DNA of 64,000 nucleotides, taken from assembly GCA_905178155.1 (NCBI GenBank), contig CAJINV010000001.1:14381379-14445378 (forward strand), read 5' to 3'. Origin of the DNA: Amoebophrya sp. A120. Its lineage: Eukaryota; Protista; Dinoflagellata. The notes under the pieces were generated by a model that saw nothing but the letters and a program-made list of their open reading frames with translations, was not told the origin of the DNA and ran no database searches. Below, piece by piece: positions 6,958-49,099 of this stretch (positions are counted from its first letter, which is position 1; each line of letters begins with the position of its first letter). The position numbers were made by a program, and so were the translations under genes.

Positions 6958-9900
6958 TCATTCTTCTACATCCATGCGATCTGGGGAACCAGCAGGTGCA
7001 GGAGCTCCTTCACCTTTATTTGAGTTGTCTTTTTTATGTTTCCTTTTCCCGCCGCAACGCTTCTTCAACGACTTGCTAGCGGGTTCGCCACCAGCCACGT
7101 TGACGAATTGGTAACGTTTCGGGACCACGTCGACTGCAGAATCAACATCCATCGTCAGACTCCCTGGATGGCAAACATTCGACGTCGCAGAATTATCGTC
7201 TCCCGGAGACATCGCACTATCAGGACTGGCAGCTGCTGAAGTGGAGGCCGAACTTGACGAAGACGAGGGGCCCACGAAGTTTGTGCTGCTGCTGCTGCTG
7301 CTGGACGGATACATCGCACTCTGTAGCAATTTCGCCTTTATTTCTTGTTCTTTCTTTTTCTTTTCGCGTTCGCGATTGAGGCGCTTTTGCTTCCGTTCAA
7401 CTTTCAGCCACTGATAGAATGTTGCTTGGCGTGCCCGCTGCAATGTGACTCGGCCGCCCTTAGGAGCTTTTTTTTGAGACTTCTTGTCGTTCGTCTTGAT
7501 GCACTTCGCTCCTGCAGCAGCTCCTTGAACAAGGTTCTGACAATGATTGTGATGCTTTCCACTATCCCACGTGGTAACTCCCCCTACCCCGGTTTTTCAT
7601 CGTTTTTCAAACTATTGAGCAGGTCTGAAAAATAAAAAAACGCGACCCGGTCACATGATCCGAGCGTGTGGACCTGAGCGACAGACTCTGTGCACTAGCT
7701 AGGGAAAAAGCGGACGATGAGAAGCGACCTTGTGCACACTAGCCATTTTATCCGAACCATGTGAGATAGCTAGCAACTTTTACTTTATCATACATGAGCC
7801 ATCCGAAATTTGCTTCCAGCAAAATGCTCATGTCCGAAATCCGTGGATCTCGGATCTCGAGTTCAAGTCGAGATCCGAGATCTGCGGTTTCTGCGGATCC
7901 GAAAACTATTGAGCAGGTCAAAAAAAATAAAAACTTGAACAGCTCAATCGTTTTACTTACAATTGCAAAAACATGCACTCCCTAAACGTGGAGCATACCG
8001 GGCAAGTTCATACTGCGCCCCCGAACAAACTTGGAAACTCTGCTGCCATCATGCAGCAGATAGTTTGGCCGAGCCGGTTTCTGAGCATACCATGCATGTT
8101 CGTATTGAACCCCCGACGGAGAACCCAAATCGACCCAAACCAAAAACCATAACGATCATTCGCTTTATTTTTTTGTCGTTTTTGTGCTGCGAAAAATCCA
8201 GGAAAATCCTCGGGGTAGTGGTCCGAACATGCAGCGGACTGCGATTTTTTTCAAATCAGGTCCATTGCGCCAAAGTGCGCAACTTTTGTTGATTTTTGCA
8301 AATTGTGGGCCGGCTCATGATTTTTCATTCCACTAGAGCCGGCCCACCAGAATACTCGGAGCCGGGGCTTCAGAAGTTTGCTGAGCCTTTTGACCCAGAT
8401 AATGTAATATCATTAATGGCAATATTTATATATATATGCCCGCTGCGCGACATTCGGATGGCTCACGCTTGATAGTTTGCAACTTTCTAGCTATCTCACA
8501 TGGTTCGAATTAATTAGCTAGTGCGCACAGGGTACTACTTCATGGTCCGCTTTTTCCGCAGCTAGTGTACAGAATCTGAAGACGCTCGGGAACCGACGTC
8601 GGCATGTGTGAGCAGGTGCCGAAAAACAAAAAATCAAACCTGCGCAATAGTTTAAAAAACGATGAAATTCCGGGGTAGGGGTAGAAATTTCACTCCATAT
8701 CCACCGGGGCCAAGACCGCTCCCACCTACCACGCCAGCCACCTTGTTGATTCCATAGGCTAAGAAATGGAGCGCGTGCCGGACCAGCTCGACGCTCGGGG
8801 TGGGGACTTGCTTCTCCAGCAGCTCTTTTCCGGAAACATGGAGGGCGTACATGACTACATGCCGCTTATCCTCCAGGTGCTCGATCGCGTGGAGACGTTT
8901 TCTCGCCTCGGAGCACACCACCGCGTCCTGCTCGACCAAGTGGTACCGGGGGTCCAGCAAGGCCTTCACGTCCTCGCCGTCCGCTGGTGTTCCCTCGTTG
9001 CGACCGTGCTTGTAGATGTCCAGATACGGAAAAATCTCGTCCGGAATCTCGGCAAGCGGCGTCGCGCCCGTGTCGTCGCTCATCTCGACAGCCGAAGCGA
9101 AGCTCGTGTTTTGGCCAGCCGCGACCTCCCGCTGCTGCTCTCCTTCACCTCTCCTTGCAGCAGGCGAAAACGAAAAAGAATGGCTCGACGAGGCGACGGA
9201 GGACGTCGACTCTCCGCCGGTCAAGCCCGCGAGCACCCGGTTGGCGTCGATGTAAAAGCACTGCCACACACTCGGGTCTGCGTCCCGCTGGCCGTACAGA
9301 AAGGCCTTGCGATTTCCCGGGTCAGACAACTCCGCGCCGCTGGCCGCCTGCTGCTTGAAGTGCAGATCTAATGCCTCGAATTCGTACCAATGCACACCGT
9401 CCGCGGTGACGGGTCGCTTGCAGTCGCGAATGTGCTCGAACGTAATTGCGCACTGCTGATCCTGCGTGTTGTCATGTGCGTACCATGTCGCTGCCGTGAC
9501 GAGATAGCCGTTCACCCTGAGAGGATTCACTTTCCACGAGGACTCAATGCGCTTCTTCAAAAACTCGCGCTGCTTGTCATGGGGGAGCTTGGCGGAAAGC
9601 AAATCCAGTTTCTGCTCCAGCTTTGGGGGAAACGTCGTAAACTGAAACACCTTCAAATAGGCCTCAATGCGGCGCGCAGTTTGCGTCACCACGACGCAGT
9701 GGCAAACCTTTTTCAAGGAAGTTTTCTTATTTCCGACATCCTCGTTTCCTGTAGAAGTTTTATTCAAGCAGCACGCAGGATTCTTCTTCGGTCCCTTACA
9801 ATTCGCATCAAAATCCAAGTCTACGACCAAATCAAGACACAATGCGTCTCCGCCGGCGATGCCTTTCATCCGCTGGCATAGCGTCTCAAACTGGAGACTC

Positions 9901-12900
9901 CCCTCGGCCAAAAAGGTGTTCAACATATCCTTGAACTTGGTTTGCACTGCTGGAAAGTGCAGAATTGGGTAGTACTGCTGCCACAAAACTTTCTCCTTGT
10001 TTAGCAGAGTCGCGATAAGCTGCTTCTCAACCTTCTTCGCGGCCGAACTGTCTTTGCGCGCTTCGCAGCGTTTCAGGTCCTGTTTCAGTTGCTCGGTTTT
10101 CTCCTCTGCCTGTTTGGTACAGCCCTGGCTCTGATCGTGCTTGTTTTCGCCTTTTCCAGCAAAGCCGTGGCACTGGACGAACTTCAAATCCCGCTCCGCA
10201 TGCAGCACCTTCAACGCCCTGCGCCCGCGGGAACTCCCAGCGAGCTGTGCAAGTCTAGTTACGCGCGTTCGGTCGCTCTTCGGGATCTGTGCCCCTACGC
10301 CATGTCCCGCGGCGGCACTCTGGTTATTCCCAGCCGTAGTTGCGCTACTCGTCCCCGAATTTGTCGTTCCCGAAATGCCCGTCGTGGTTGTCCCAGTCTT
10401 GCCATTTTTCAACACGCGCCGCACCTTCTTTTTCCGATTCAGCACGTTGAGCTGAAACCTGCCGAGCAGTGCGGCGAAATTCCGTCCGCGAATGTTGGCG
10501 CCAGCCGTCCACGCGGAATTCTTGACGAAGAGCTTTTTTCCCGACGTTGGGGCAACTGCTTCTCCGGACGACATCGCGGAGGACGCTTCTCTGTTTGTTA
10601 CGCGGTCGCCCCGCCGGATCTGGTACTTGTCGATGCGGCGGAGCACTTTGCGCTTCTCGCTGGAGAGGAGATCAGAGACTCCAATCTCGGCTTCCCACTC
10701 GGAGGAACATTTCAACTCCCCCATGACACTAGCGAAAAAATCCGCGGCCTTCTTCGGCGTCATTATGCGGCACATTACGTCCAGAACTTCCGCCACGGAC
10801 ATGGGACGGGTAAGGCGACGGGGATCTTGTTGGTCAGCTTGAGTTGTACCCTTTTCCGGATGGGGATGAAACGAATGACGACATAAAGCAGAAGCATATC
10901 CTTGTCCTTTCGAGTAAAAAGCCTGAGTGCCGCTCTTGTCTGTTTCACTTTCATCGGGTCGTGATAAGGCCGGTGGGAAACACCACGAGAGCCATTTCAG
11001 CAGAGTGTTCGTGTGCTTCTCGACCAGCTCCTTTGTATCGTAGCCGTCATGACCCGGGTTGTTCGGGACAACTTCGGACAGGTGTCGCCAGAGCGCACGG
11101 AACAGCGCCTGCACAAAATCAAAATATCCGGTACAAAAATTCCGGTGTCCTTGCTGACAGGCAGTGTGGTGTTTCTGGGTCGCTGCAAAAAAATCGGAAC
11201 TGGACCCAAAATTGTTGTCGGACCGGAAAGCTACTGCAGAAGTAGATGACAAAGCTTGATGCTGTCCGGAACTGTTTGCTTTTTGGCCACATGCCGCAGA
11301 GCCTTGCTTGCGTTTCTTCTTGGACGACACACCGTTCACGTCTGGTTCCCGAAAAGCCATCAAACGAGCCATCGAACTGTGCTTGCTGAGCCAGTACAGA
11401 TCCAAACACGCCTGATCCCCGAACTGATGCACGACCATGGGAGACGCGGAAAGACAACCTGAGGATGGCGACGGCGCCGGCTTCAATCCGTCACCGTTTT
11501 GCGCTGCAGCTTGTCCCCCCGCGACGTTATCTGACAGGATATTCTGTTGCTCCGGGCACTTCTGTCCTTTTGTTTTCGTTTTGTCTTTCAAGAGCAAAGC
11601 CTCGCTCCAAAACGCTTTGCAGTGCAGCACTGCGTCCGCAGCCTGTGGCCCGAAAAAATTACCACATGGACCAGCCAGTATCTGCTGTTGGGGAGCGGTG
11701 CCCAGGTCACGTCTTTTCGCGTACCGGGAGAGATAGGGGAGCACGAGAGCCAGGCTGTTTGGCAAGATCGGCATCTTGTCTAATATTTGCATCAGAGTCA
11801 CGTACTTGGCCCCGATGTAGCCTCTCGCTTTCGGATTTGATTTCTCCTGCTTGTTGTTCTTCGTTTTGTTCTTTTGGCCGTTTGTGCAGCCGCCCGATGT
11901 TGTCGGGAGCGCTGTCTTGCCGTCGCCCAATTTCCGCAAAACGCGGTAAAGCTCTGCCACGTACACCAAGTGCGGAAAGAGGGAATCTGGTAAAACGCCG
12001 TGACTTTGCAGCTGAATGCAGGTGTGCAATTGCGACAAGTAAGAGCTGTGAAATTCCGCAGATACTCCCTGCGAGAAAAAGCGGCACAGGGGAAGTTGGA
12101 ACTGCACGTAGAGGCAGGGCGCCATCACGAGCAGTTGCTGTGTCACGGCATTCGTTCTCAGATCCGACACCGTGTGAAAAGTAAAGGCCGCATCGTCCGG
12201 AAGGGGGAGAAGAGTGAAATCGCGATTTTTGTCCTGCTCGGCGACTTTTTCACCGGATCCAGATGCGGGTGGCGGCTTGTTCCTCGCTTTCCTAAAATAC
12301 AGCGACACGTACATCCTGCCCCTATCCCACTGAACAAAAGCACACGACCCATCTTCCCCGACCTACGACGCAAAAGTCTTTTTATTTTTCTAAAAGCTTC
12401 AGCAGCGCAAGCCAAAGCGCAAGCGCTCCTCTCCTCGCATAATATGTCAGCGAGCGGAAGCGCCACTTCTCTTCAATAATAGAAAAATAAGCCATGCAAC
12501 AGCTGAAATGGCGAGACTACAGGAGGAGGTTTGTGTCACACTACAAGGGTGCATGGTGCTGTGCAAGAGTCTGCCCACGCAGCAAGACAAAACCTATACG
12601 ATTCAAATAACAATGTCGAAGCTGCTTATTCCTTGCAATACAAAAAGTGCAAAGCCTACTTGATTTTCTTTGCGTTGACGTGGGTCCATGAGCTTTTTTT
12701 CCATGCCGATAGCCAAAGCGCGAGTTCCCCTCTAGCTCTTCCTTGTTTTGCTGACCCAAAACTACGGCTTCTGTCTTGTTGGGAATGCAATTTATTTTCG
12801 GCAGTTCACAGGAAGACGCCAACTTCGGTTGTTCGCGCTCAAAAAGTTGCTGCGCTTCTTCCAGCAACCGCGTACGATGGGTTTCGATCTTCTGCCGCAG

Positions 12901-13119
12901 CTCTGCGCCCGTGGTGAAGAACCCAGATCCACCACACTGCCCGTTATTGGAAGGCTCGTACACTTCGAAGAGCAAGGGGCCGCTAGGCGACCACTCGCCC
13001 CCGTCCATGCCCACAGCCCTCAGCGACACGCCCACAGACGCAGGAGCCGCGACAGCCGAGGCTGGAGCTGGTGAAGAAGCGTTTACCATTTCAACGTCGC
13101 CGGTGTTCGTCTTCATCAT
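6958..13119 (-). CDS. Large protein (>1400 aa) with a U-box-like segment; last exon separated by TIR intron E1; 12541-13119 is a probable 5' exon
   Basis: 1220-aa ORF 8652-12314 joins ORF 6958-7443 in frame (..GPGG|KHHNHCQ..) after removing 7563-8699 plus one TSD copy (1142 nt); CAITFEHIRDCKRPVTADGVHWYEFEALDLHF..SDPGNRK resembles a U-box. Confidence 0.6.
7563..8699. mobile_element. TIR introner E1 (1137 bp, ~245-bp imperfect TIRs, TSD TCCAC)
   Basis: tccac|tatcccacgtgg...cactccata|tccac (TSD 7558-7562 and 8700-8704); long inverted arms include cccctaccccgg and cgaaccatgtgagatagctag. Confidence 0.9.
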
Positions 13120-13190
13120 TTTTGTCGCGTATGTAGTTTTTCTACAGCGTTTGTTCTTTCTCCTTGTTTTTCTCCCTGTTCAACTTCATC

Positions 13191-13349
13191 CAAAAGTAAT
13201 TTGATCTTCAGCTTCGATGCGAAAGTAGTTCTTTTTTTTTTCCATGCCTGGGCATGGCCATGGCGTCAAAGGTTCAAGGCCCCAAAAAAAAGAAGTAGTT
13301 TGATCTCCGTGTTCGCACGAGGGCCAAAAGTAGTTTGATCTTCAGCTTC
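13191..13349. repeat. Dispersed direct repeats aaagtagtttgatcttcagcttc upstream of a gene
   Basis: 25-bp copies at 13191-13215 and 13325-13349 (1 mismatch), partial copies near 13221 and 13293. Confidence 0.7.
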
Positions 13350-14328
13350 AATCCGAATCCGGCACACACAGTTACAACGGTTAACACACCTGATCATCTA
13401 ATGTTACGTGGAGGCTACTCGTGATCGTCAAGAACTTTCGCATCACTGATGCAAAAGTTCTTGACGAGCATGGATTCAAGGCTAGTGCTCTATATCCGCT
13501 TTACCTCTGTGGCTTTCTGGCGGGTTTTGACTCTTTTGACTTTGAAGATCGCGGGAGCGCATCACGATACAACGCCTGAAGACGGGAAGTGCAAATGCTC
13601 TTCGTTCTAAAATGGAAATCGCCTTCTACCGCTGGGATTGAGCTTTCTTCCGATGATTTTGGGAGGATAAAGCAAATCATCTAGAACATCACTTTTTAGA
13701 AGACGATGGATAGTGATGCTGCATCCCATGCCCGTCAACAACAAGATTGCATACTTAAATTTGACAACTACGGCTGCAGCTGTTTGCATGTTCCTTGTCA
13801 TTCTCCTTCTGATTCTGTGCACCGCCAGACGAAGCTTCAGTTTTCAGCTGCAAATGCAACCTGTCCGATAGCTCCTTGCAAAAACGCGGTCACAGAGTTT
13901 CACCCCTTTCTCCACAGGGTGTGTATCAAAAGCGACATCGTGCTCAGTAAATGATGAGAAAAATTAGAATTACTATTTAACGAGCTCGATCCTCGTTTTC
14001 CAGCGTGAATGAATATTATGTTGCAGAAACTTGAAGTAAATGAAACTTCGAGAAGAAGCGTTCGGAAAATAGACGTAATAGAAAGAGCTACAACAGTTCG
14101 GTCGTAAAAGATAAAGAAAGCAACGTAGTACCAGCCGGTTCCAAGACATGCATTTCGAGGACCGATGTTGGAACGATAAAGAGCACGAACCCTCTGCCCA
14201 ATTAGTAGATGGAGGAAAACAATGGCCCTCAACAACGCACGTAAGTAGGGCGAGCTTCACTCAAATTATACTACTGCCTTAAAAGTTGCAGTGTGCATCA
14301 TGATGGACTTGTGCCAGCACATGCATCC

Positions 14329-16490
14329 TCACGAGCTACCGCACATGAGCGCTCTCGACACTGCTCGTAGTATGAGATCGACGAAATTTAATTTGCTTAG
14401 CTGTCCCCCCGGTTGCAGCATTTGCCCTTTCGTCATGCCAGGCCTGTTGTCCTGCGAGCCGAGAAACCAATCGCGAAACTGCTCGTCTGCGTAAGCACCC
14501 CGCCAGGAGGCGTGTCCGTAATTCATTTGCTTGTAGTATCGGGTGTAGCGCACCCGAAACCGACCGCTTTCGTCGTACAATTCGACAACGCGCACTTTCT
14601 CTGGTTCTTCCCGCCGAACCTCGAGCCGGCCACCCTGCTCTTCTACGATCACTTTGCGACAAAGGTCAAAATTGAAATCCGAGTAAAGCTCGGCGTGCCA
14701 CCTGCAAGTAGGTATACTTGAATTTGAATTTGTCCGTCGTGTCTACTTTCGCATTCATTTTTTCATGCACTACGAGTTCCTACCAACACGAATAAAGCAA
14801 ACATGTCTTGTCGGTGCAAGAAAAAAAGATCTACTTACTTGTCTTCCTCTGCGACGAAGAACCACAATGGGATATCGAGCTGAAGCAACGCGCGCACTCT
14901 GCGCTCCGCATCCTCACTAACGTACTCTCCGCCGGCCTCGGGCGGAGGGGTAAGCCTGTGCGTGCGATCGTCGTGGATGATGTGCTTTGAGATCAAACAG
15001 TCCTGGTTCTCCGTCCGCGTGCTCACCCTTCCGCTCGCTCGGGCTGGTGGCGATGGGTAGTAGGGTGTGTGCAAGTAGTGCTCGAGCGCGGCCTGCTGCG
15101 GCGTCGCCTCGGGGAGCGCATGGTTATGGGCGTCGTCCTCCCCCTCGTGGACGATGGACGGGTCGTCGCGGCCTCCCTTCGGGCACACCGCCGCGCAGGC
15201 TGCAAATTTCAGCCCGTACTTCTCGAAAAAGTTGCAGGGCATCGGGTAGCGAAACTCGTCAAACCCGCTGGCCGCCAGGGTGATCCCCACCGCGCCCGCA
15301 CCACCGGCGGACTTGCCCGTGACGTACAGCCGATCCTTGTCGATCCGCAGCCCGGATTTGTTTACCACGATGTCCAGCATTTCGAACAGCTGCTCCAGCG
15401 CGTCCGGGTACGTCCACTGCCACCACCCATTGTCGTCGAACAGCCGCCCCTTGTTCACGTGCGGCGCAAGCATGACGCAGTCCCCCGCCAGCGGGAACGC
15501 GTTTTGCTCGTTCTGTCGGGCCAGCGACTTGTTCATCGGGCTGCTCGGGTGGTGGAGATGAGGAGCAGGAGAATCACTACCCGCCTGTACCCCTGACGTT
15601 GCCTGCGAGGTCCTTTCCAGTACTTCGACCGGATCCACAAACCGCTCCGTCTCCCGGTCCGCGACCAACGTGAATGGGCAGCCCTGCTCGAAGGCCAGCA
15701 CGTCGTGGTCCAGCAGGTTCCAGGGGTCGTCGGGGGTGTGGTCCTTGAGGTCCGCCTTGGAAAAGGGGGCGTCCGCCGCCGCGTAGGTGGCGCCGCCGTG
15801 CAAATAGAGCAGCAACGGGTAGCCATTCGCGTTTGGCGGGGGAGAAGATGAAAAAACGTTGGCCGCCGGACTGTTTGGAGAGTAATTCGCCGGCGTTCGC
15901 ACTAGGTATCCCAAATTTCCCTTCGGGGTCCGCCCGCTCCGAATTTCGCCCGGCGGCAGGGACACGGGAAACCCGAGCTCGCTGTGCTGGTTCTCCGCGA
16001 AATACGACTGACGGCGCCGCTTCCGCTGATTCGGGAGCGCGTAATGCGTGATGGGGGCGACTTCTTCCTCCAAATCCGAATCCGCGTCGACCAACAACGA
16101 ACGGTCGATGGCCCTGCGATCGCGCGGAATTGTGGACGACGCGTCTCCTGTTGGTGACGCGGTCGACGCTGGGCTTCGACGATTGGCTCCTGCTTTGGGT
16201 CCGCGAGGTGGAGGAGGTGTGCCTTCAGCTAGTCTCTTCAGGTAACGCATGCGCTGCGCTTCGTGGGCCAAGTGCGCCACTGTGGAGAGCTTTTTCCATT
16301 GCATGCGTGCGTGGTGAGAACCAGAGGGGGACCCCGCTGACGTTGCACGATTATTTGTGGCCGCCGAGACGGAAGAATATATTTGCTTTCCCCCAGCAGC
16401 AGACATGCGTGCCCGCTGCAACACTGCGGCAGCGCTGTCATCCTGCTCCTCCACCGAAGAGAGCTCCTGCTCGTCCGTGTTGCCGGCCAT
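14329..16490 (-). CDS. Alpha/beta hydrolase (esterase/peptidase-like), 2 exons
   Basis: YPLLLYLHGG, IDKDRLYVTGKSAGGAG (GxSxG nucleophile), IPLWFFVAEED; canonical GT-AG intron ~14703-14838 leads to an exon with the candidate catalytic His (GHASWRGAY). Confidence 0.85.
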
Positions 16491-17664
16491 TTTTGGCGGA
16501 GTTGACCTAGACTAGGACCACAAGATATTGGGTCATATCGACCAAGACTAATTAGAGCGAGAACTACTTCGAAAAAAGAGTAAATGCGAATCAGTCATCA
16601 ACGTGGGAAAGGAAAAAGGGGATAAGGCTGTAGCCGTACCGATGTTGGGCAAGCGGCAGAAATAAATGCTGATCCACAGAAGATTACAGTTTTTTTGGCT
16701 CATCTGGTACCGAAAATGCTCCTTCGGCTGAGGAGCATCTGTAGTTGCTGCACCGAATAAATGTCTTGTTGCGAGACGTGGACCATTTTTGCGACGAGAA
16801 CTTGCTCCTACTTGTACTTACGTCTCCTCTATACAAATGGCTGCAAATGACCGAAATTACAAACAGGCTCAGTACCGAAACGGAGTGCCCGTGGGCAATG
16901 ATGAGTGGACTGATACTCTTCCATCTTCTTGTCAACCGAACTCAATTTGTGGTTCCGGGCGGTAGAAACATGTTTATCAAAAGTAATTGATACAACCCAC
17001 AGGCAAAGTACAGAAAGTGACCGATTCGCAGCTTCCTTTGCGTTGCAGGTCCAAAGCAGCCGAGATGGGTCCAGCGAAATCGCAGCCTGGCACCGCCATC
17101 ACTACACACACAGCAAGTAGAAGCACGCGCAACATCAGTGGACGACGAAAAAGTAAATCATGAGTACAACCGAAGGCGAAGCTAGGAGCATCATGAGCAT
17201 CAACAATCTTCTTCTTCTACGAGACCGACGATAAACTACAATAGGCTTACTCACCAATCCAATCTACTATGTATGTAGAAGGCACGAACAAGAAGTACGA
17301 AGAGAGTTTTACCGAGTTGATGTTGAGCGGAGGCATATATGATGCGGGAGCTGCCGCGAGAAATAACACATCAAACATGGCAGTAGATCATGCGCCTACG
17401 ATGCTAGACAAGAACATCTAGGAAACTCATACATGGGAAGCACCAGGAGCCGTTCGGCACAAGAACTTCTTGTCTGTCTATCTCTGTGTGACGGCCAGCA
17501 GAAAGTTGTAGCACAGAGATTGTAGCCGCTAGAAGCAGCACCATGATCATGTGGACTGTTCAAGAAAATTCGCACAAAGAATCACAAAAATGCTGTGTTG
17601 CTCATGCAAACATGTTGGTCGTGGCAAACGCAAGACTCTAAAAAATCGAAAAGGACGAAACAGA

Positions 17665-19104: not shown

Positions 19105-19932
19105 GCTTGCGCACCGTAGTATTCGTCACGAAGAGGAAGACGGACACAAACACACTCGTGAAAGAACAATGCAAACCCTTAACCAGAAAAGCACTTTAAA
19201 GTTGAACTTTCGTCTATTTTGCGCTCGGCCTCGGCTCCGGCTGCATTAAAAATTTCAGAAAAATCACAAAAAAACATCAGCTCGGGTGTGTATTCGTGCC
19301 GGTCGCATAGCACTTTTGCACTCTTTGTCTTTAGCAAGAAAGTTCCTTAACGCAACCGAAATGGAGCACGTCCGGTTGTACACAATTATCGACGAGGAAG
19401 AAACGCTCCAGCGTATTCGGCGCAATCATTTTGCGCCGGAATCTGTTTTTATTGCAGCTGAGTACAACTTCATGCGTTCTTCCATGGCAGAAATGAGTCT
19501 TGCACTAACTTCTGCTCGCATCTCTGACGTGATAAATATCATGTGCCCTTTCAGCACCAGCAACAGCATTGTCCAACGAAGATAGTGATTAGAATATGGA
19601 ACACTAGAATGCTGTAAAGTTAAGTTCTCCCATGAACCCGATGCTGAACCACGACCACGAGAAGGAGGACGCGTGACATCACATTTACATGAGCGGAGAC
19701 AAGCGAGATGACAGCAAGAATCTTCACAAGGTTTATTTAGAGCAGATAGATTCACATTGGGATTGCGACCGCCCCCGTGTGCGGAGAAATGGTTTTTCTT
19801 TTTTCTCATCTTCTCATCATGCTGATATGTGCAGTCGTTGCAAGAAAAGTCAATGATGTTCTGCTTCTGACTTTGAGTTTGAGTAAATCGTAAAAAGTTA
19901 AATCCGAGCAGGACGCAGTCACGGGTCGTTCT

Positions 19933-35494: not shown

Positions 35495-35535
35495 GTAACA
35501 CAGATTTGTAGCAATTTGCTACAAATCTGTGTTAC
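35495..35535. repeat. Perfect 20-bp palindrome with 1-nt spacer
   Basis: gtaacacagatttgtagcaa-t-ttgctacaaatctgtgttac. Confidence 0.9.
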
Positions 35536-37268: not shown

Positions 37269-38438
37269 TCACGCGTACAGAATCTGGCCATGAAACAAGT
37301 CAAAAAACGATCTTGCTTTCGCAGGCCCCCAGTTTGGAATCCGTTCGAGCTTGTCGCGCGACTCGATTGCCAGTACTGCTGCGAGCGATCCAAAATGGTC
37401 CAGCAGCAGTTCTGCGTCCATCCGCGTCAGGTCGCGACACAAGGCCAACAGATCAAGTGCGGTTTCGCGACAGTAGAATGCTTCATCAGCATCGTCAGCG
37501 GCCTCCCGTTGCTGCTCCTCGTAATGTACCGCTTTGGAGGAGGCTATTGGTTCGTCCTGCAATTTTGCTGCGGTGACATCAACGCCGCACTGATGCGTAA
37601 CTACGGTGCCGTCGTTCTGAGGAATTGTCTTTGTGTTTGGTTCGCCTGCTGCAGAAAAACCACCAGCAGAGCCAGTTGCTGTATTTGCCACTACTGGTGT
37701 GCTGGAAGCTTGTGCCTGCTGATTCGCCCCCTTCATCAAATTCGTACTTTCAGTCGCCACATGCCCGGCTATTATTTTCTTTCCCGCTACAACACCTCCT
37801 CCGGTAGTAAACGATGCAGATTTGTACCCTCGCAGAAAGGCTTTTGGCTTCCGGTGCACAAACGCCAGATCTTCAATCGCCAAGGCTGCTTCGGATGGAT
37901 TCCTTACGCAGTACAAGTTGCTGGGTGAAAAGATCACGTCCATCGTGAAGTCCTGCAAAACTTGCTCTAGAGCCTTTCCGACACAAACGGGGTCGTCAAA
38001 AAGCAAAAGCACAACAAGCTTCTTGACTTGATGCGCAGCTGTCGAGGCCGACGCTCCTGTGGTGGTGCTGACACTACTAGACACTTGCACTGTTCCTGCG
38101 GAGGTATAATTTGCAGTGGTAGAAGTTCCGCCAACCATCAATCCGCCAAGTCGCTCCAGTTTTTTTCGCATTCCGTGCAATTCCGTGCGCAGTGTTTTCA
38201 GTGACAATAACCAGACACCTACATCATTGCCGCCAAGCCGGAAGTCGAGCCCCTGCAGCGAAGCGACATAGTTGAGAGTGACACCGCGAATCGCGTTCGT
38301 TACCGGATGCTTTTTCAACGAGTTTGCGACCAACATTGTTGGGCGTGAAGGTGCCGAAGAAGCCGAAGATGCCAGAGACTGGTGTTGGGTGACCCCTGGG
38401 GCGAGCCCAGCTGGAGCTGATGTGCCTTTTCCGTTCAT
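37269..38438 (-). CDS. ERCC1: ERCC1/Rad10-like DNA excision repair protein
   Basis: Central domain (KKHPVTNAIRGV, DFRLG, WLLSLK, VVLLLFDD, SEAALAIE) plus C-terminal HhH2 (LTRMDAELLLDHFGSL..IPNWGPAKARSFFDLFH). Confidence 0.8.
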   Translation of the reverse strand: MNGKGTSAPAGLAPGVTQHQSLASSASSAPSRPTMLVANSLKKHPVTNAIRGVTLNYVASLQGLDFRLGGNDVGVWLLSLKTLRTELHGMRKKLERLGGLMVGGTSTTANYTSAGTVQVSSSVSTTTGASASTAAHQVKKLVVLLLFDDPVCVGKALEQVLQDFTMDVIFSPSNLYCVRNPSEAALAIEDLAFVHRKPKAFLRGYKSASFTTGGGVVAGKKIIAGHVATESTNLMKGANQQAQASSTPVVANTATGSAGGFSAAGEPNTKTIPQNDGTVVTHQCGVDVTAAKLQDEPIASSKAVHYEEQQREAADDADEAFYCRETALDLLALCRDLTRMDAELLLDHFGSLAAVLAIESRDKLERIPNWGPAKARSFFDLFHGQILYA

Positions 38439-39056
38439 GTTGTTTCTGTATTGATGCAGAAGTCCTCGAGGAACTACAACAAGAACTCTATTACTAGCAA
38501 ATGCAACAAATGATCTTGAAATTGAATCAGGTACAGGTTCAGGTTCTCAAGTACGGGTACCAGAAAATAACGAAAGCACCTACTAGTACTACTCTACTTA
38601 CATACTTACAAGCAGAACCACTACATGAAGATCACCACGAGAAGAATATGCACCAGGACCTTTCGAAATTTCACAGGGAAGTGATCATCGGCGCATCGCT
38701 GATGGTGATCATATCGTTGGTAATCGATTGCTTTCGCCCTACTTGGATCAATCCTTCAAGGTCAACTGCGCAGATGAAGAAGCGAGTCCACGGCATCGAT
38801 TGGCGAGCAAGCCACAACTCGTTCCGGCTTCGCACAAGAGCAAATGTCCTCTTGCTTCATTTTACGTGGTGGATAGATACCTATATCTTGCAATTTTACA
38901 GGATCGACGGAACATATGGTCCGGGCAGCGTCTTCGTCTGTGATGTAATCGACGATGTTTGTGCTTGTCCAGTGTCGGCGACATATCGACGTCGTAATAG
39001 TGTCGTCAAGTACAGCACGCAGATTTATTTCCTCGTCATGAATCAAATGCTACACT

Positions 39057-42000
39057 TTAGGTGTGATGGACATTCTTGTAATTTTTCTGGACAATGAGTG
39101 AGAGTTGAAAGTGGGCGCTCAACTTTGGCACGATGTTCCCGTCAAGAATGTCGCTTCGGAGTGCCGCTGCTTCTGACATGATGTTGTTCCGGGTCGTCTG
39201 TTTCTGATTTCTTGTTCGCAGCCTATTTTCATCGTCGGCGACATTTGCAACATCCGAACAAGCTCCATCGGAAGATCTAGTTGTAGACGCTTGCTCCGCA
39301 ACAACGAGCGGCTCTGCCACAAAGGTCTTGACGAGTAGGGCGTCGTCGCTGTTCTTGGTACTATCTTCATCTCCTGTACTTGTTGCAAAAAGATCCATGA
39401 GTTTGAACTCCAAGCGGCCGACTACAAGGTCATTTTCGCCGAGGAGCTCGACGACCGCGGTGGCCTTCTTGGGGTCGCCATGGACCAAAAACGTGAAGCA
39501 CTCGTTGATGACAGCATCCCCGATAATAGCGGCGGTTTTTTTCGCGTCTTTGCTTGTTGTTCCCTGCGTCCGTTTGCGAGCAAATCCCTGGTCGTGGTGA
39601 TCCAGCAAGAGTTGGCGGCCGTAAACTCGCACTACGTCTTCGTCGACGTTGCACGCATCGGCAACCATCGCCACATCTAAGGGCTTTCGATTTACTGCCA
39701 TTTTCGAATCATGCAGCTCTTTTTTCATCTTCTCCTGCCTTCTCCTATCACTGATCTGCCCTCGCGCTCCACCAGCAGCGCTGATCTTTTCCGCGCAATG
39801 ATAGAGCAGCGCGATCTTTTGCTTCAGTCGGGTTTCCCGTTGCAAAAGCTTCTCCGTGTCCTCTTTTGGCGCGTCGTGGGTCAAGGTCGCGTTCAAAAAA
39901 TCGTTGTCCAGCAACGGCGACCGCATCGAAATGCAGCTCGTGATGTACTGCTTCGGACCGTGAAGACGTTCTCGTTCCTTACGAATCGCAGCACCTTTCT
40001 TGTCAAGTATATTACCCCCGGCTATTTCATTCGCGAAGGCACCAAACCTCGATGTGCCATCTCGCAAGCTCACGCGAGCACTGCCACTGCAGCGCGATAG
40101 TTCGCAGAGGGACTTTACTGCGCCGATCGACACTCGGAGCACGGCGGTGATCTCTGGTTGCGAAGATAGGAGGCCATCAAGCCCTTGATCCTCGTCCCGT
40201 CCTTTGGCGTCATCTACCCGTAGACGCGGGGACTTGACGCGCTCCTCGAGAAGGACATCTTCTTCGGGACGATTGCCAAACTCCAGAACCTCGCCATCTA
40301 AAAGAATCGTTGGTCGCGAGAGATGAATATCATCTTCATTTGAGTTGTTGCCGGACAGGTTTTCGTGATGCAGCTGCTTTTGCGGTTTATCGCTTCGGAG
40401 AAAGGTGGGTTCTGAAAAAGACGGCGGAACGCTGCTACACAGCGGCTCAAAAGTAACACGAACATGCACTCGAGAGTCGTGCAGCGTTGGGATCTTGTTC
40501 ACCGGATCACGGCGGCAACGCAGCGCGTTCAAGAAACCGTCCACGACGTCGCCAATGTCGAAGAGGGACAGGTAAATGAGCGCTCCAGCGAACCCGAGCA
40601 CGACCGTTGTCCAAGGGTAGCCACTGCCTACCAAAGCAACCAACGCCGCAAGCGCCGCGTAGACTAGTAAGCGCGCACCTCTGGAGACCCGGCGACGCAA
40701 GCGCGATATGAAGTAGCGGAACGAAGAACTACGATGGGACAGTGTGTAGTTGCCTTCGCCGCGCCGTGCCGCACGATTCCTGTGTGGGCTTGTTTTCCCG
40801 GCTGCACGACCACCAGCGTGGTCATCCCTGTCTTTGTTCATCAAAGAGAGCATCTTTTCGCCGACGAAGTCGATTTCCGGCACTTCGTTGCCCTTCTCGT
40901 CTTGGCACACGGTGGTGAGGGGCAGCTCGCAGGTGGCCGAGCAGGCTTGGTTGTTCTGGCCGTCCGCGAAAGAGGACCACGAGTTACTGCTTTTCTTCCT
41001 CTTCCACGATTCGTTCTGCATCACCTGCTCGTCCGCAATCGTCGTGTTGGCTTGCTGCTGTTGCAGCACCTGCGTGAGTCGCTGCGTATCGGAAAACGCC
41101 AACGAAGTGGTCGCGACCGGCATCAGTCGCTGCCATTCTGCCGACTTTTTTGGCAGAGCGAAGGTCTGCTGTTTCACCGCTCTGTCGGACGCCAGCCCTG
41201 TGGGACCAGTCCCGGAAAAAAAGAACATTTCCAACACAAATCCGAGAAACGTCGACAGTAACCTCATCACCGCCTGGCGGTATTCTTTGAGCAGCTGCGC
41301 GAGGCCAATGGAGGAGTAGCTCGAGGTCGGGCCAAAGAGAAACCGCGTCACCACAAGCCGTTCCTCCTCGAGACGAAATTCGGAGTCGAGGGACGGGGTC
41401 TCAGACGGCAACTCAGATACTGACGGCGCGCATTCTTCTTCATGATTCGCGGTGCTGCTGAGAACAAGTGGCTTCGCATCTTTGACACCAATTGATGTCG
41501 ACGTCGTCTCAGGGTAGATTAGGGAAGCAGACAGTTCGTACTCCTCGTCCAAAGATTCCAAATAACCCTGGGAAAAATCATCGACATCCTGTGCCTTTTT
41601 CCAGAAGTACTGGTGGCTAGCGGCATTTGCTGCGGCTGACGTGAACATGCGGGCGGGGCCGGGCTGCGGTCGGTGCGCGTGCACTGCCAGGACACTCTGC
41701 GTTTCGTCAGCGAAGTATCCAGGAAAAAACACCCATCCACATCCAATTTGTCATGCTAAACATACATAAAGTCCTGCGTTTGTCATGCAAAAAATGGATG
41801 TGGAGGGGTTTTTTCCTGTGGATACGAAGTGCGTGTCTCGCACCAGCCCGGGGTAGCCACGGTTTCGAAGCCACTGGTCCAGGAGCAGCTTCGAAAACTC
41901 GAAAGGGTTGCGCGTTTTCGCGGCTTCGAGAATACGCGAGAGATCAGTGTCCTGCTGACCCGCCTTGTTGTTTTTTTCCCGTCCCATTTTTGACATGATT

Positions 42001-45000
42001 TCCTGCTCTATCTTGTCTCGTTCCCGCTTCCGCTCCTCCGCCTCCGTTTTTTTTACGAGGTGAAGCAATTCCACAAGACTAATCGCACGCTCTGCGATTT
42101 TGTCGTCGCCCGAAAACATATCGTCATCGAAAATCTGCAAACTCAGAGTCTGGATGGAAGAATCCTCCACAAGGAAGACAAACTCGTCACCGTCTGTACG
42201 GGCATTGCTCGTCGTCCTAGTCCACAGTGGCCTTTCATTCTCGCCGTTAATTGTCGCGGTGCGGTAGACTTTGCTACCGACACACACTTGGACATACGGA
42301 TCGGAAGTGCGTCGGCCGCTCCAGAGCGACCACGGAAAGTTCCAGTCATCGCCCCGCAGGTTCTCAGCGGAGAGCACTTGAACTCGCAGAATTCCCTCCG
42401 GCATGGGCGCCAATAGGTCCGGCAGCTTCAGGCCTTTATCCGCCGCCCTCTGTGTTGCCGTCATCATGGGTGATGCCTCTAGTTCCACCAATGGCGAAAG
42501 ACCATTGTGGTCCACCACAAGTTTCTTGGAGTTTGTGAACGCGGGGGGCGCAATGGTATCGGTGCTGAGTGCCCGTTCCAACTGACTTCGAGGAGACAAG
42601 GTTGATGTAGTGGCAGTTTGAGTTTCGACGTTCTTAATGCCATGTTGGGCATTGCCGGCATCGTGGCCTGCTCCTGAACAAGCATCATTGCCAACATCAC
42701 CGCTAGCAGCACTAGAAGGCGCCATGGATACATCTACCAGCGGAACCGCCAGCCGCTTGGGCAAGACGCACAACTGCCCCAGTGCGTCGGTGATACTGGA
42801 CTCCACGATCGGGTACAGGTTGACCTGGTGCAGAATGTCGAGCCCCCCGGCAAAGCGAAAGTCGCAGGCCGGCGGATTGACGAAATAGGCGGACAGGCCC
42901 TGAATAAACGGCGGCTCGTCAATCAGGTCGTTCAGTGCGAGCACAAACAACCCCCTCACGCGCAAGTTCTCCACGCCGACGTGGATACTACCTATCGTCA
43001 GCCCGATCTTCGAGCCCTCCGAGAAATCGCCGTCCAGGTCGAGAAACAGGTCAAAGTGTCGCCGCTCCTTCTTGTGCTTCAGCTGCCCTCCATACGCAGC
43101 GCCGATAGTAGTTTCTTCTACCCGGCTGCGACCATACAACTTCCTTAATTTGGGCGGATTCTGGCCCAAATCGCACACCAAGTTGAGCGTGACGCTGTTG
43201 CGAACGGCAGTGGGGAGTTTCGCGCGGATTTGGGGCAGCACCTGCGACTGGATCACGTCCTCGATAACCGTTTGGACGACGGACCAAAGGTTCTTCAGCA
43301 ACGTGTTCAGCCAGTGCGTTCCGAACGGCGTCGGGGAGGGGAGGCCGTCGAGCACCGTATGCGCAGCCGGTCCTGACTGCGGAGCGACAAGACAAATCTG
43401 GTCTACCGCGTAATCGATCACATACGGCCACAGTGTGCCAATCAAAACCGCCAGGAAATCATGTTGGTGCCCCGGATCACGACCAGAATCCGTCCCTTTC
43501 TTATGCGCGTTAGCTTTCTGCTCGGTCGCTGGAGTATTCGTGTCGACAACTCGTGCTCTGGAAGTCTCAGCTTCGTTTTTTCGGCCACCTGGTGGAAAAG
43601 CCTTTACTTCGACCGCATCACTGCGCTGATGATTGCTCTTCGCCGGGGATTGCTCTGGGTCAGGTTCTGTTCCTTGAGTAGGTTTCGTTTGCCAATGCTC
43701 CATGAAAAACTCTTGTGTAGGAGACTTTCGAACCATAAACGGCCCCTTTCGTCGAGTCTGTACCTCTTGGTGGACTACTTCTCCCTCGAAGTCCGTGTCG
43801 CTTGAAGGAGGCTGCGGCTGCTCGCCACGTAGAAATGCCCGCTGCTGCTCTCTTTGCATCCTACCGCCCACTCCTAGTTCTTTCTCAATGTCAATATACA
43901 CGTCCTCCACCTTTTCCTCCTCAAACAGTACGAGTTCGAGACTTCCGTGGAGTTCTTGGCGCGGCGCTACCTCCTGCTTGATGACCTGCACGTTGGAGCG
44001 CTCACGCAGCAGGCGGCTCAAGGGGTATTGGAATGTGCCGATCCATTCGTCAGGCTCCTGGGGGTCGTCCCCATGATCCAGGTCCACCCCAAAAACGTCG
44101 ATCACCAAGGTTTCCAATCTCGGGTCCTGGAGCACAATACAGAACACCTCGTCGATTTGTGCGAGGCCGAAGGCCCGCTGATCCACCAAATCCAGGTCCA
44201 CGCCGAGGATTTCGCAAATAAAAACCGTCGGTATGCCGCGGTCCTTCATCATCTGAATGTCGTGCATAGTCTCGGCCAGAATGGCCGGGTCCAGGATAGG
44301 GGGCAGCACGCGGTGCACCGACGTATCGTACTGGTTTGACGCTGCCGTGGTAGCGCCCGCTCGCGTTGATGCCGACTTGTTTAACGTGGCTTTTTCTCTT
44401 GGTGATGCTGGTGCTTCTTGCAGTTGTTTTCTTTCATTTTTACAACGGAGGTTATTTTTTTGCTCCTTTCGGACCGTTTTGATTTGCAGCCGGACGCCGG
44501 AGAAGTCATACACATTCTGGATTCGGTCAAGCCCAACTCGGAGAAGAAAGCGATCTTCAGCAGGTGCGGGAAACGCCGTGGGAAACTGACGCATCATGAA
44601 GCTGCCCTCACGTTCGATGCTCGCACGATCCACCGACTGCCACTCGCAGCGCAGCAAAATACGGGCAGACTCCCGAAACACGAGCTCGTCACCGTGCTTC
44701 GTCTGGTCGACGGTAAGAAGACTGTACCACTGTTGACTCACGTACCGCCGGACACGAAGAGTGTCAGTTTCTTGTCGTATTTTCCTATGATTTTTCTTGA
44801 AGCTGTGCGTGGCACCTTCTAGGTCGTCCCGATAGCAGTTCTGCACAAGATCCATCACCTGCAGACTGGTCTTCGCGATCTGGTCGTCGCCCGAGAAAAC
44901 GTCCTCGTCCCAGACGGAGATCTCGCACGTTTGTCTTTCGGGACTGTCGATGAGAAACGAGAACCCCTCCACCTGTGTGACATCCGCCATTGGGTGCAGC

Positions 45001-46838
45001 CGGTGCGCGCGCTCCATCGACTCCACTTGTTGCATTTTTGACGACGGCTCTGTGCTGCCAGTGCCAACACTTCCACTTGTCGTGTGTGTAGATGAGGGAG
45101 CGCTGAGAACCGCATTCACGACGTTAGAAGCAGAAGCGTCCTTCTTGTTACTGGGAGGCCCAGATGAAGAAGCTCCTTTGGCGCCGGGCTTCTTCTTTTT
45201 ATTGTCTACTGTGCCATTGGTGTTGCCCTGCTTCGCTTTCGTCGTTTTCGGCATCCAGCTTGGGTTGCAGTTCCTCGGGATCGTCGGCGTGCAGTAGTTT
45301 TGCGACCCAATTGCCACACGCACGTAGGGGTCACTGGTCTTCACGCCCGTGAACAGGGTACAAATGCCCCAGTCGTCTCCCCGCAAGTTGTGCGCTTCCA
45401 ACACACGTATCGTCAACTGGCCCTTCGGCATCGGATAAATGACCTCCGCATGGTCGCGACAGGGAATCTTGCGGAAAAACGAAGATGTTGCAGTAGATTT
45501 GCCGGATTTCTCCCTTAGACCTGCACCCGCGCGGGCTCTTGCATGTGACGTACTACTCGTGGACTGATCTTCATCGTGGTCGCCAATTTTGAGTTCCCGC
45601 AATAGATCGCCGATGTTGTCTGTTCCGTCGGCGTTCTTGTTAGCGTCCTCCGCCACAGCCACTGGATCCGACGTTGTACTGTCCAAAATGTAGGTGAGCC
45701 GCTTCGGCAGCACACAGGCTTTCCCGATGGCGCTCTGGATAGCGTCTACGATGGTCGGTTTCAGGGACTGGATACCGGGGGCGAGCTTCGCGACTCCGCC
45801 AAAATCCAAATCAAATTCGATCTTTGGCGGGTTCGTGAAGTACGCCGAGAGGCCTGCGCAAAACAAGGGCGCGCGCTCAGATGAGATGTCGTTCAGAGTG
45901 AGGAAAAGCTTCCCGTGAAAAAAGAAGTTCCGGACAAGGCACTTTGCAGGTCCGACGACTATGTGAAGCAGGTCGATCATTTCATCCTCTAGTACTGATG
46001 ATGTTGCTTCTAATTCATCTGCAAGCGGCTTGATGTTCGCTGGTTGTTTTCTTTGTTGCGCGCATTTCGAAGGTCCTGTCCAGCAACTTTCGGGTCCAAC
46101 AACATCATCACCTTTCTCGCCGCGGCCTTTTGCGCCGTGGTCCACAGGAAGTTGTAATCCGCTTGCCGGCGCGTCCAGCTCGCTCGTGACGGATCTCCGG
46201 CAGCGCTGGTCGAGACTGAGGTCGAGGCAAATGTCTAGATCTTTTCTACCGGTTTCCGGGTCCGTGCGCAGGGGCAGCGTCGTAATACTGCGGACACTGA
46301 AGGGGCGGTCCCCCAAGTTTGCGTTGATGGCCACCTTCCAGTTGCCGATTGCGGAAGGAAGAGTCTTCTCGATTTCGGGGGTTATCTGCTTTTCGATCAC
46401 ATCCTGCAGAGTGCTTTCTATCATGGGCCAAATGTGCGCAAACACACTGTTTGCCCAATGCGTTAGGTCGGCGTGGTCCTCCTGGTCCTGAGCTGATGGT
46501 GCAGTAGAGAGGTTGGAGGCGCCAGCGCCAGTGCCGTCTTCTTGCCGCGCTGGATGTCCTCTCCTTTTCTCTTGCTGTTGAAAGGGCATGGGCAACGTGC
46601 GGAAAGTTTCTTCTACCAGACGTTTCACGACCAAACTTTCGACGGAGTGGCTCACTTGGCGGCCAGCATATCGCATGATTAAGGGCCACAAATCCCGAAG
46701 CACGTGCCGTAACCATTCCTGCGAGGCGGCGTCGTCAACTTCTGCTGACTGGTCGCCCCGCTTTGGGAGCCCTACGGTGTGCTGCAACATATTCGTCGTC
46801 CTCCCTTCCGCGTGAGTACCGGTCAGAAAAAACGCCAT
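39057..46838 (-). CDS. ~2550-aa extended-synaptotagmin-like protein with two SMP-C2-C2 modules
   Basis: SMP motifs (HWANSVFAHIWP..NLGDRP; HWLNTLLKNLW..DLGQNPP), C2 motifs (GQLTIRVLEAHNL..SDPYVRV; GILRVQVLSAENL..SDPYVQV, IFDDDMFSGDD); ORFs 41751-46838 and 39057-41732 fuse after removing E9 (114 nt). Confidence 0.85.
41716..41824. mobile_element. TIR introner E9 (109 bp, TSD CGAAG), family B-like
   Basis: cgaag|tatccaggaaaaaac...gttttttcctgtggata|cgaag; carries an in-frame stop at 41751-41753; removal gives THF|ADETQ. Confidence 0.9.
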
Positions 46839-47711
46839 GAAGCGAGAGCGAGAGCGACCCCGAACCCAGAAATGGGTTCGCGAACAAAAATAATCAAAAT
46901 TTTATGGCTTACTTGATAATCTATTCTAGAGTCTAAATGTAAAGTCGAACAGCGAAAATAAAACAGAAAATCGAAAAGGAACAAAAGGATAGATGAGTTA
47001 AAGAGGTGCTTCAAATCGTACACTTAGTGGCGTAGTTTTGGCTTCAAGAAGAGTAGCACCTGCTAGTCGTAGCACAACAAAGGAGTTTTTGCAATTAGTG
47101 CCATCTGCATGTTCATCGTAGTTGTATCACCATGTCCATGGCGTCAAATCCACTAGGTTTGTAGTTCTTATTTCGTTTTTGTATATTTTTTTTCGGCCAG
47201 CACAAATTCCAGGTTTATTATCATTTTGCTTCCGAAATAAAGGGCGAGAATCTATTTCCAGTCCGAGTTGTTCCCTTTCGCGTTCGTATTGTTGTTGTTC
47301 TCTTACATCAATAAGTAGTGTGATGAAGATCTCGTAGTTCTTATGCAAGTAGGAGAGAGATCCTTGTGCAGGAGCAGGTGCTCGTGCTTCCACTCCTTAG
47401 CCGACAACAAACAGAGACTCTAGATCCCAGATCTGGCATGCGACCGAGGCGGAGCAGATGTAGAAGCCGAGATGAGGAAACCAGATGCACCATCAAACCG
47501 AAAGCTCTCTCATACTAGCTCTGGTGGAAAGCACCACAACCGACCAAGATGATGATGATCTTTTTCAACTTTATTGATAGCCGCGAGGATCCGTCTCAAT
47601 GTTGCTCTTTCTTAATGTTCTAGTGTCGCATCAACATGATTATGATCGTGTGGCAGCGGCGCGTCTTCCGATGTATTCCATGCACTGTCACTGTGCAATG
47701 CAGCCGCGGTT

Positions 47712-49099
47712 TATCCATAGTAAATTTCCCGTACACGTACAAAAGCCGCTTTTTTCTGCACCTAAAAATTAACGAAAAAAAAATGCATTTCAAAAAATTC
47801 AAAACCATTAATAATGATATGCGTGCAACAGTATGCAGCTAGAGCTGCGATATGAGTATAGGTTTCGAAAGCAAGAGCCTAAAGCTGCGGCGACTCCGCG
47901 CCGCTTTGCTCGCTTTCCTGGGCGGGGACCTGGCGAAGGAATCATACAGAGGAGGATACAGCGACGAGCTTGTCCGGTCAATAGATGAATGCGAGCGGGG
48001 CCTGTTTGAATCGGAGCAAATCAAGCGGGCGGCCGGATTTGATTCGACCTTGGACGCTCTGAGAGCGAGCACTATACTACTTTGCAAACTTTCCCCGCCT
48101 AGTTTCATCCTGTTACGCTAATAATTTTTGCCCTTTTGTAGCTTTCACGCACAGACGCAAATTCCAACCCGAGCAGGTCAGCTCGACATTTCGCGCGACG
48201 AGATCTCCGCCTCGGCGGCTGTCGCCAGCTCGAAGAAAATTTATATTCTGCTCGCGCAAAAATGGTCTCGAGGGTTGACACAAAAATAAATCCAGCCTTG
48301 ATTTTACGTTTTCAACCCAACAAAATTGCATCAGTTTTTCGTGTACAGTAGATTTAATCCCCACGGTATGGTGAAACGAGGCATGCTCCTGTACATGATT
48401 TTTCATTTAGAAATAGCTGTACAGGAGCATGCTTCCATTCACCATACCATGCGGATTAAATCTACTGTACACAAAATAGAGCGGCGACTTTGGGTTAGTT
48501 GAAAACTGAGCGAGAGGGTTGACGGAAAAGGTCGTCAACCCTCGCCGACCAACCCTCTCCGACCAACCCTGCGAGACAGCCGTCAGCCTCAGCATCCGTT
48601 TGCCGTCACAACATCACAGGTCCATCCCTCTCGTCGCACGTGGCGACCAGGTGGCACGGGGACATGGAAACAGCAACCTGGACGAAGACGAGTGGCCCAA
48701 TGGCAGTGACGGTTTTGAAACGGCTACGGAACCGCCCGAACGAAAGGCAGCAGACGGCTCTGAAGTCGGAGACTCCGGCGGATCGGGTGGATTTGGACGA
48801 TTTGCGGGCAAACCCCGTGCCTTTCGAGGACGTGGCCAGTGAGCCCGGAAGTGCTCCTGATGGTGTTCGACGCGTGGATCTCGCGCGGAACCTGGCAGAG
48901 ACTCTAGCCAGTTAAGAGAGCTACACCCACGCAGCACCATAGCAAAAACCTCTATTCTATCGCAGCTCTAGCTGCATACTGTTGCATGCATATCATCATT
49001 AATGGTTTTGAATTTTTTGCAATGCGTTTTTTTTTTCGTTAATTTTTAGGGGTAGAAAAAAGCGGCTTTTGTACGTGTACGGGAAATTTACTATGGATA
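47712..49099. mobile_element. TIR element E10 (1388 bp, ~155-bp TIRs, TSD CGGTT), intergenic or UTR
   Basis: cggtt|tatccatagtaaatttcccgtacacgtacaaaagccgc...gcggcttttgtacgtgtacgggaaatttactatggata|cggtt; internal hairpin 48341-48472. Confidence 0.92.

Follow-up and report, generated by a model that had tools for sequence, protein, structure and literature searches.

In a 64,000-nt stretch of the genome of the dinoflagellate Amoebophrya sp. A120 (contig CAJINV010000001.1, positions 14,381,379 to 14,445,378; hereafter the window), we describe eleven transposon-like elements with TAY…RTA ends, terminal inverted repeats (TIRs) and a 5-bp flanking target-site duplication (TSD), ten of which interrupt genes. 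They are very probably introner elements of A120 that are truly removed at the RNA level, a reading built on what is shown here: the organism, the anatomy of the insertions, shared TAT-N7-AAA ends, a skip of the element plus 5 nt in RNA, retention in DNA and the splicing of one family in both orientations. The system is already published and mostly annotated, and the elements themselves are not new; what is new here is a testable lead on the register of the cut, together with orientation independence. In Amoebophrya, tens of thousands of introns are removed without GT-AG and apparently without U1, and the published work left their true borders unsettled, since these are masked by the repeat. 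Where the two repeat copies differ, existing RNA-seq data can expose the borders. A fixed register, N|TAY…RTA·NNNN, would, if true, establish what the substrate is, discriminate between a relaxed spliceosome and a hairpin nuclease, and account for the harmlessness of exonic insertions.

The elements are given below in window coordinates, without strand.

E1, 7563-8699: 1137-bp TIR element with a perfect 5-bp TSD, in gene A
X12, 12323-12711: 389 bp, TSD matching at 3/5 positions, in gene A; the eleventh element, overlooked by the first-pass annotation
E2, 19994-20290: 297 bp, family 1 (with E3 and E7), reversed relative to E3 and E7, in gene B
E3, 22643-23303: 661 bp, family 1, imperfect TSD (4/5), in gene B
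E4, 24343-24482: 140 bp, family 2 (with E6 and E9), TGT left end, in gene B
E5, 24635-25863: 1229 bp, 53-nt TIR, perfect TSD within a 41-bp flanking direct repeat, in gene B
E6, 28357-28472: 116 bp, family 2, imperfect TSD (3/5), in gene B; spanned by the annotated protein P0005
E7, 30383-30634: 252 bp, family 1, within the PH domain of gene C; based on P0002 and orthologs
E8, 30692-31449: 758 bp, imperfect TSD (4/5), within the PH domain of gene C; based on P0002 and orthologs
E9, 41716-41824: 109 bp, family 2, in gene D; based on the reading frame
E10, 47712-49099: 1388 bp, 93-nt TIR, perfect TSD, in no long open reading frame

They were detected by a scan across the window for TAY…RTA ends, a 5-bp flanking repeat and a TIR, which recovered at their reported spans all ten elements of the first-pass annotation (109-1388 bp, seven with perfect and three with imperfect repeats) and added X12. 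The 5-bp repeat is thus perfect in 7 of the 11 elements and imperfect in E3, E6, E8 and X12. As a chance control, TAY…RTA pairs with a 5-bp repeat of at most two mismatches and a TIR score of at least 12 were counted in the window and in 40 dinucleotide shuffles. At this strict setting the window holds 11 pairs, nine of them listed elements, while the shuffles averaged 0.275 and never exceeded 1. The flanks agree with an identity of 0.89 at a length of 5, compared with 0.21-0.32 at every other length between 2 and 9, the 5-bp peak being partly circular in that the scan required a 5-bp repeat. The candidate pairs 24762-25863, 62450-63262 and 7689-8571 were discarded as internal or chance pairs, and a motif-free scan for TIRs and TSDs was too noisy (6630 pairs).

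The 22 element ends resemble one another closely. Their first three positions hold T in 22, A in 21 and T in 20 cases, followed by variable bases, with T and G favoured at positions 8-9; TAT opens 19 ends, and AAA stands at positions 11-13 in 17. Within positions 10-15, AAA is found at 19/22 ends, versus 9% of 2138 background TAY sites. The termini are TA..TA at 21 ends and TG at the remaining one. Because all 22 ends fit this TAT-N7-AAA-like consensus, a single mobilising enzyme class for all elements, as the first-pass annotation had supposed, is plausible from the end sequences. Two related families are present in the window, E2/E3/E7 (family 1) and E4/E6/E9 (family 2), and E1, X12, E5, E8 and E10 have no relative within it. 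The E2 and E3 ends collect thousands of DNA contigs, a figure that is not a copy number. Both TIRs pair in the predicted folds of all 11 elements, with a mean pairing probability over the first 20 nt of 0.25-1.00, and the predicted stem begins 1 to 8 nt inside the element, varying by copy.

The host genes all lie on the minus strand and are listed with the two ordinary introns of the same region.

Gene A, 6958-13179, minus strand: 1561 codons from stop to stop once X12 and E1 are removed, with RNA coverage
Gene B, 19933-28964, minus strand: a single 2202-codon frame once E6-E2 are removed, annotated as two A120 models, P0005 and P0001
Gene C, 29843-32009, minus strand: P0002, a 287-aa PH-domain protein whose gene contains two element introns and a single GT-AG intron
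Gene D, 39057-46901, minus strand: 2576 codons, with SMP and C2 domains
Ordinary GT-AG intron, 18295-18468, minus strand: skipped by the assembly of RNA run X3
Ordinary GT-AG intron of gene C, 31543-31825, minus strand: placed by the mapping of P0002

Removal of each element with 5 nt, that is, with one TSD copy, opens long frames at 10/10 genic sites in these four genes, X12 included (1561, 2202, 244 and 2576 codons). Removing the element plus 0, 3, 4, 6 or 7 nt fails to open them, and plus 8 works, as the frame demands. At E9, two open frames, one of 1690 codons and one of 886, become continuous on removal. The main exon of gene A has no Pfam match. The A120 proteins P0001, P0002 and P0005 all map onto the window, P0002 and P0005 being neighbouring models. 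P0001 (1595 aa, Amoebophrya sp. A120) has 100% identity over the matched part of the gene B exon, and it agrees with the element-plus-5 model at 1595/1595 residues across E2-E5. P0002 spans E7, E8 and one GT-AG intron, and orthologs from two other Amoebophrya strains are gapless across the E7 and E8 sites in the PH domain. Altogether, 7 of the 10 genic elements (E2-E8) are already introns in public A120 gene models. The P0005 annotation also contains a 35-nt TT..GT skip at 27745-27779, inside an open 830-codon exon, which splits gene B in two and is probably an annotation error; an RNA contig also ends near these positions.

For expression evidence, four runs were mapped to positions 7200-27199 of the window, and the RNA test thus reaches E1, X12 and E2-E5. 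Run X3 consists of assembled contigs whose RNA type was guessed; that it is complementary DNA (cDNA) is shown by the lack of depth in intergenic stretches and by the skipping of the GT-AG intron 18295-18468. One X3 contig of 4400 nt aligns in contiguous pieces at 19515-19988, 20291-22638 and 23305-24337, skipping 19989-20290 (302 nt, equal to E2 plus 5) and 22639-23304 (666 nt, equal to E3 plus 5). Since E2 and E3 lie in opposite orientations and both are skipped within this contig, the signal works in both orientations. At E1, an X3 piece begins at 8700, and depth is zero inside the element and resumes beyond it. At X12, a piece ends at 12317, and bin depths of 4.53 and 3.22 compare with 4.54 and 3.22 predicted from skipping; at E4, a piece ends at 24337, with a depth of 12.6 against 12.60 expected from a skip or 16.10 from retention. 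The E5 bins give 2.13 and 12.2 (skip-predicted, 2.12 and 12.23), and another bin has depth 0, where a skip predicts 0 and retention 13.90. Of ten X3 bins, eight are within 0.05 of the skip model, while retention misfits. RNA-supported skips therefore stand at six of the ten genic sites, two exact (E2 and E3) and four from piece ends and depth (E1, X12, E4 and E5).

E5 is flanked by two 41-bp repeat copies (24594-24634 and 25864-25904), with two differences between them and the TSD at both repeat ends. Removal of E5 with the whole 41-nt repeat was rejected, as it predicts depths of 1.26 and 13.10 where 2.13 and 12.2 were seen. Both copies are kept in the mRNA and in P0001, producing a 12-residue tandem duplication, which may have originated via microhomology repair at the element end.

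In DNA, the elements are kept. Throughout 7200-27199, run X1 gives about 27-fold coverage, and its contigs cross the E1-E5 junctions at a depth of 25.6-29.1, two of them running unbroken through X12 and E4; X1 may be the source of the genome assembly and hence not independent of it. In 28 DNA contigs, the end of a family-1 copy runs straight into the start of a family-1 copy (20290, 22643). These joints between the E2 end and the E3 start were taken to be probably other family copies, adjacent or head-to-head elsewhere, more than circle junctions. Neither of the two raw RNA runs covered the host exons: X9 contributed 89 reads, only on the family-1 end 22643-22674, all derived from a single different locus where the element continues into its flank, and none on host genes, and X10 gave 0 reads. 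The X9 reads represent either a retained element or a related strain sharing the family.

None of the 11 elements shows a GT-AG, GC-AG or GA-AG pair in any of six coding-strand (minus) registers. In-frame GT-AG or GC-AG pairs within 35 nt number 6-26 per site, yet none yields the element-plus-5 mRNA. The first-pass annotation had proposed frame-perfect introns removed without GT-AG, with frames restored by loss of the element and one TSD copy, no canonical pair on sliding the junction, and ordinary GT-AG introns nearby. All of this is borne out, by the six RNA skips, by A120 models spanning E2-E8 and by the introns at 18295-18468 and 31543-31825. The cDNA comparison that it proposed points the same way, the X3 assembly skipping the elements at six sites and the nearby pairs never giving the same mRNA, and excision at the DNA level, which it had considered, is made unlikely by the elements kept in run X1.

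The position of the cut can be expressed as k, the count of TSD bases on the 5′ side of the intron, which a perfect repeat hides and an imperfect one reveals. At E3, the RNA contig retains the last base of the downstream TSD copy, so that k is at least 1, and the end of an RNA piece at X12 sets k at no more than 3. The annotated protein has Ser instead of Pro at E8, as have both orthologs, which again requires k of at least 1, and at E6 the annotated protein carries Arg, not Pro, giving k of at most 1. Given these bounds, k=1 is the sole register fitting all four sites, two of which (E6 and E8) rest on annotation. We consider it reasonably likely that this register, N|TAY…RTA·NNNN, is fixed, with the first T of the element at intron position +2 and an acceptor without a fixed sequence. 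In the parts of the published data consulted, all nine of the top A120 non-canonical motifs have T at +2 (Table S4, PMC7789003), as do 892 of 1322 annotated fam1 introns, where about a third would be expected from six equal registers (PMC12130899); in the commonest A120 repeat, four bases stand upstream of the 5′ end (PMC7789003). These published +2 and repeat data lean toward k=1. We found no open-access paper that fixes the register, the figures of PMC7789003 not being covered.

For the origin of the elements, we favour, with some reserve, an integrase-like DDE transposase of Ginger/GingerRoot type that would bind the shared ends and insert with a 5-nt stagger. Removal would be carried out by a relaxed spliceosome able to work without AG and without U1, although as to the spliceosome being the catalyst we are evenly divided. 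The 5′ cut would fall one TSD base before the element, where the intron start N-U-A-Y resembles a GU-A donor; the TIR hairpin would join the intron ends; and the 3′ cut would come four bases past the terminal RTA, at any sequence. One whole TSD would be lost, and the original exon would thereby be rebuilt. Guidance of removal by TIR pairing, another suggestion of the first-pass annotation, is unproven and depends on predicted folds. As a more tentative generalisation, on which we would put somewhat less than even chances, most A120 introner families might belong to one transposon lineage whose ends read TAY-N7-AAA and whose TSD is fixed at 5 bp, all spliced as one TSD base, the element and four TSD bases. 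The first T would act as +2 U in the donor, and the 3′ cut would be measured from the TIR without AG. Whatever its orientation or target, every insertion would then be born a perfect intron, because the signal would be the symmetric end itself.

Several points weigh against this account. E6-E9 lie outside the RNA evidence, E6-E8 being placed by annotation and E9 by frame, and the RNA support comes from one assembled run, whose contigs drop minor forms and which may not be independent of the public annotation. Two X3 bins misfit the skip model: 5.95 versus 7.46 near E1, beside a skipped repeat, and an excess of 0.77 versus 0.29 near E5. The upper bound k≤1 comes from one annotated residue, at E6, in P0005, the model with the doubtful 35-nt skip, and in the k=1 register a GT start occurs at 2/10 sites and an AG end at 1/10. 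BLAT-type aligners may favour T at +2, and the excess in the annotation may be such a bias. As to mobilisation, none of 80 frames in E1, E3, E5, E8, E10 and a separate 6.6-kb element matched Pfam, and no transposase was thus recognised there; the longer elements look non-autonomous from their reading frames. Likewise, PMC7789003, in the part cited, reports that no transposase was found in A120.

The main rival accepts the same introns and dispenses with the spliceosome, attributing removal to a protein nuclease and a ligase that recognise the TIR hairpin, a route already suggested for euglenid nonconventional introns; we judge it unlikely, while taking it seriously. It would accommodate the fact that, whatever the register, neither intron end has a constant dinucleotide, the pairing of the TIRs in all 11 predicted folds and the removal of family 1 in both orientations, which requires symmetric signals, and U1 small nuclear RNA (snRNA) was reported as not found in A120 (PMC7789003). 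A nuclease reading the hairpin is harder to reconcile with a stem start that shifts from copy to copy while excision stays constant. Moreover, the set of spliceosomal proteins is almost complete in A120, and the position of the invariant T would be +2. Euglenid nonconventional and Fritillaria non-canonical introns, as described in PMC11282704, both resemble the window elements in being like the miniature transposable elements with inverted repeats known as MITEs, with a TIR hairpin, a TSD at the borders and no GT-AG, and a euglenid-type terminal stem joining the intron ends is predicted for 11/11 window elements, at the pairing probabilities given above. They differ in that euglenid introns follow a pyrimidine|purine junction rule, to which the k=1 register conforms at 1/10 donors and 2/10 acceptors, and Fritillaria introns have a dominant AG-AC/AT pattern, whereas no fixed dinucleotide occurs here (PMC11282704).

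It is likewise improbable, in our estimation, that no single register exists, with the cut sliding within the TSD or differing by family and the ends derived from several unrelated transposon superfamilies. Seven of the 11 TSDs are perfect and hence uninformative, and PMC12130899, as far as cited here, attributes A120 introners to diverse types of transposable element (TE), with widely varying TSD calls. Against such diversity stand the four informative sites, mutually dissimilar by BLAST, which all fit k=1, together with 22/22 ends fitting one consensus and all 11 repeats peaking at 5 bp.

Very little weight attaches to a third possibility, that the skips arose when reverse transcriptase switched template from one 5-bp repeat to the other across a hairpin, the elements being kept in the real mRNA. 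Direct repeats with strong structure are a known setting for false non-canonical junctions (PMC4176328, in the part consulted); the RNA evidence is all cDNA, and a search for Amoebophrya direct-RNA data gave nothing relevant. With the elements retained, however, frames would be broken at ten sites across four genes, also within a PH domain that is conserved in two other strains, RNA depth is zero inside E1, and the skips are exact even with a 3/5 or 4/5 repeat and weak predicted pairing (E3, 0.25). Excision of the elements from DNA in the transcribing stage, like the internal eliminated sequences (IESs) of ciliates, is scarcely credible: it would suit exonic TIR elements that are bounded by TA and lose exactly one repeat, and the DNA evidence is one run, X1, of unstated life stage, but the junctions are crossed by DNA contigs of single-copy depth, which continue without a break at X12 and E4, no empty site occurs among the 15 joints listed, and we know of no separate somatic nucleus in this group.

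Introner elements in RNA-level removal, the preferred reading, agree with what is known of A120. Repeat-flanked introners and abundant non-canonical introns had been mentioned by the first-pass annotation as known in Amoebophrya, and this is confirmed by Farhat et al. 2021 (PMC7789003; statements here refer to the parts consulted), who describe an A120 inverted repeat of TAT, seven less conserved bases and at least three A, direct repeats of 3-5 nt (5 bp in the Fig. S19 legend), RNA-validated non-GT-AG junctions, 29,850 repeated introns and a hairpin model. The window elements share with these introners the organism, the TAT-N7-AAA inverted repeat, the short direct repeats, the non-GT-AG RNA junctions and the repeated families; they differ in that the repeat is 5 bp in 11/11 elements and that four sites point to a single register. 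According to the same paper, where the border falls is unknown and the repeats vary; its authors speak against general mobilisation by a transposase (PMC7789003). Gozashti et al. 2025 (PMC12130899), again in part, assign A120 introners to diverse TE types, with automated TSD calls varying widely by family, and give the superfamily as 'Unknown' for 54 of the 56 A120 rows examined (of 58). Their A120 introner family 38 (file sd07, row 580) is similar in being listed as Ginger with '5-bp TSD, TA/TA Termini'; it is unlike the window elements in having five copies and open reading frames like proteins of long terminal repeat (LTR) elements, and no window element was sequence-matched to it.

The link to IS3EU transposons suggested by the first-pass annotation fails on TSD length, which is 5 bp here and usually 6 bp there (PMC10045372, in the part seen). 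IS3EU and GingerRoot do resemble the window elements in their TA..TA termini, with occasional TG..CA (PMC10045372, PMC6839031), but flank identity here is 0.27 at 6 bp and 0.89 at 5 bp. Their autonomous members encode a DDE transposase, whereas none was found in the longer window elements by Pfam (0/80 frames), and we found no open-access paper linking Amoebophrya to IS3EU. Ginger1 and Ginger2 (TDD) have TG..CA termini, unlike these elements, with TG at only 1/22 ends (PMC6839031, in part); for the Ginger2 TSD the consulted parts of the sources disagree, giving 4-5 bp (PMC10045372) or 6 (PMC6839031), compared with 5 bp here. The TIR/TSD introners of Micromonas, Aureococcus and Symbiodinium are likewise DNA transposons whose loss with one TSD rebuilds the exon, but, according to the part of PMC9860276 cited, they carry or co-opt GY and AG sites, absent here in every register. 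U2-type spliceosomal introns differ from all 11 elements in the GT/GC..AG ends, which are lacking in the six registers.

Further structures were observed within and beside the elements. E1 contains long sub-terminal inverted repeats of 126 nt (7682-8578), and E10 an internal 75-nt hairpin (48321-48492). A GC-rich element of 6.6 kb occupies 56025-62667, outside recognised genes. It ends in TA..TA, its TIRs measure 60 nt or more, and the repeat flanking it is a perfect one of 8 bp, which makes it a TSD class distinct from the introners; none of 35 of its frames matched Pfam, and it encloses nested inverted and tandem repeats at 59203-61202 and 59815-60345.

A candidate GT-AG intron (14702-14838) lies in a hydrolase-like gene at 14329-16511, which has a weak Abhydrolase_3 match and no depth in run X3. 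The minus strand, on which most genes in the window lie, also carries a weak Rad10/ERCC1-like match at 37269-38546 and a DEAD-box helicase at 49390-52383.

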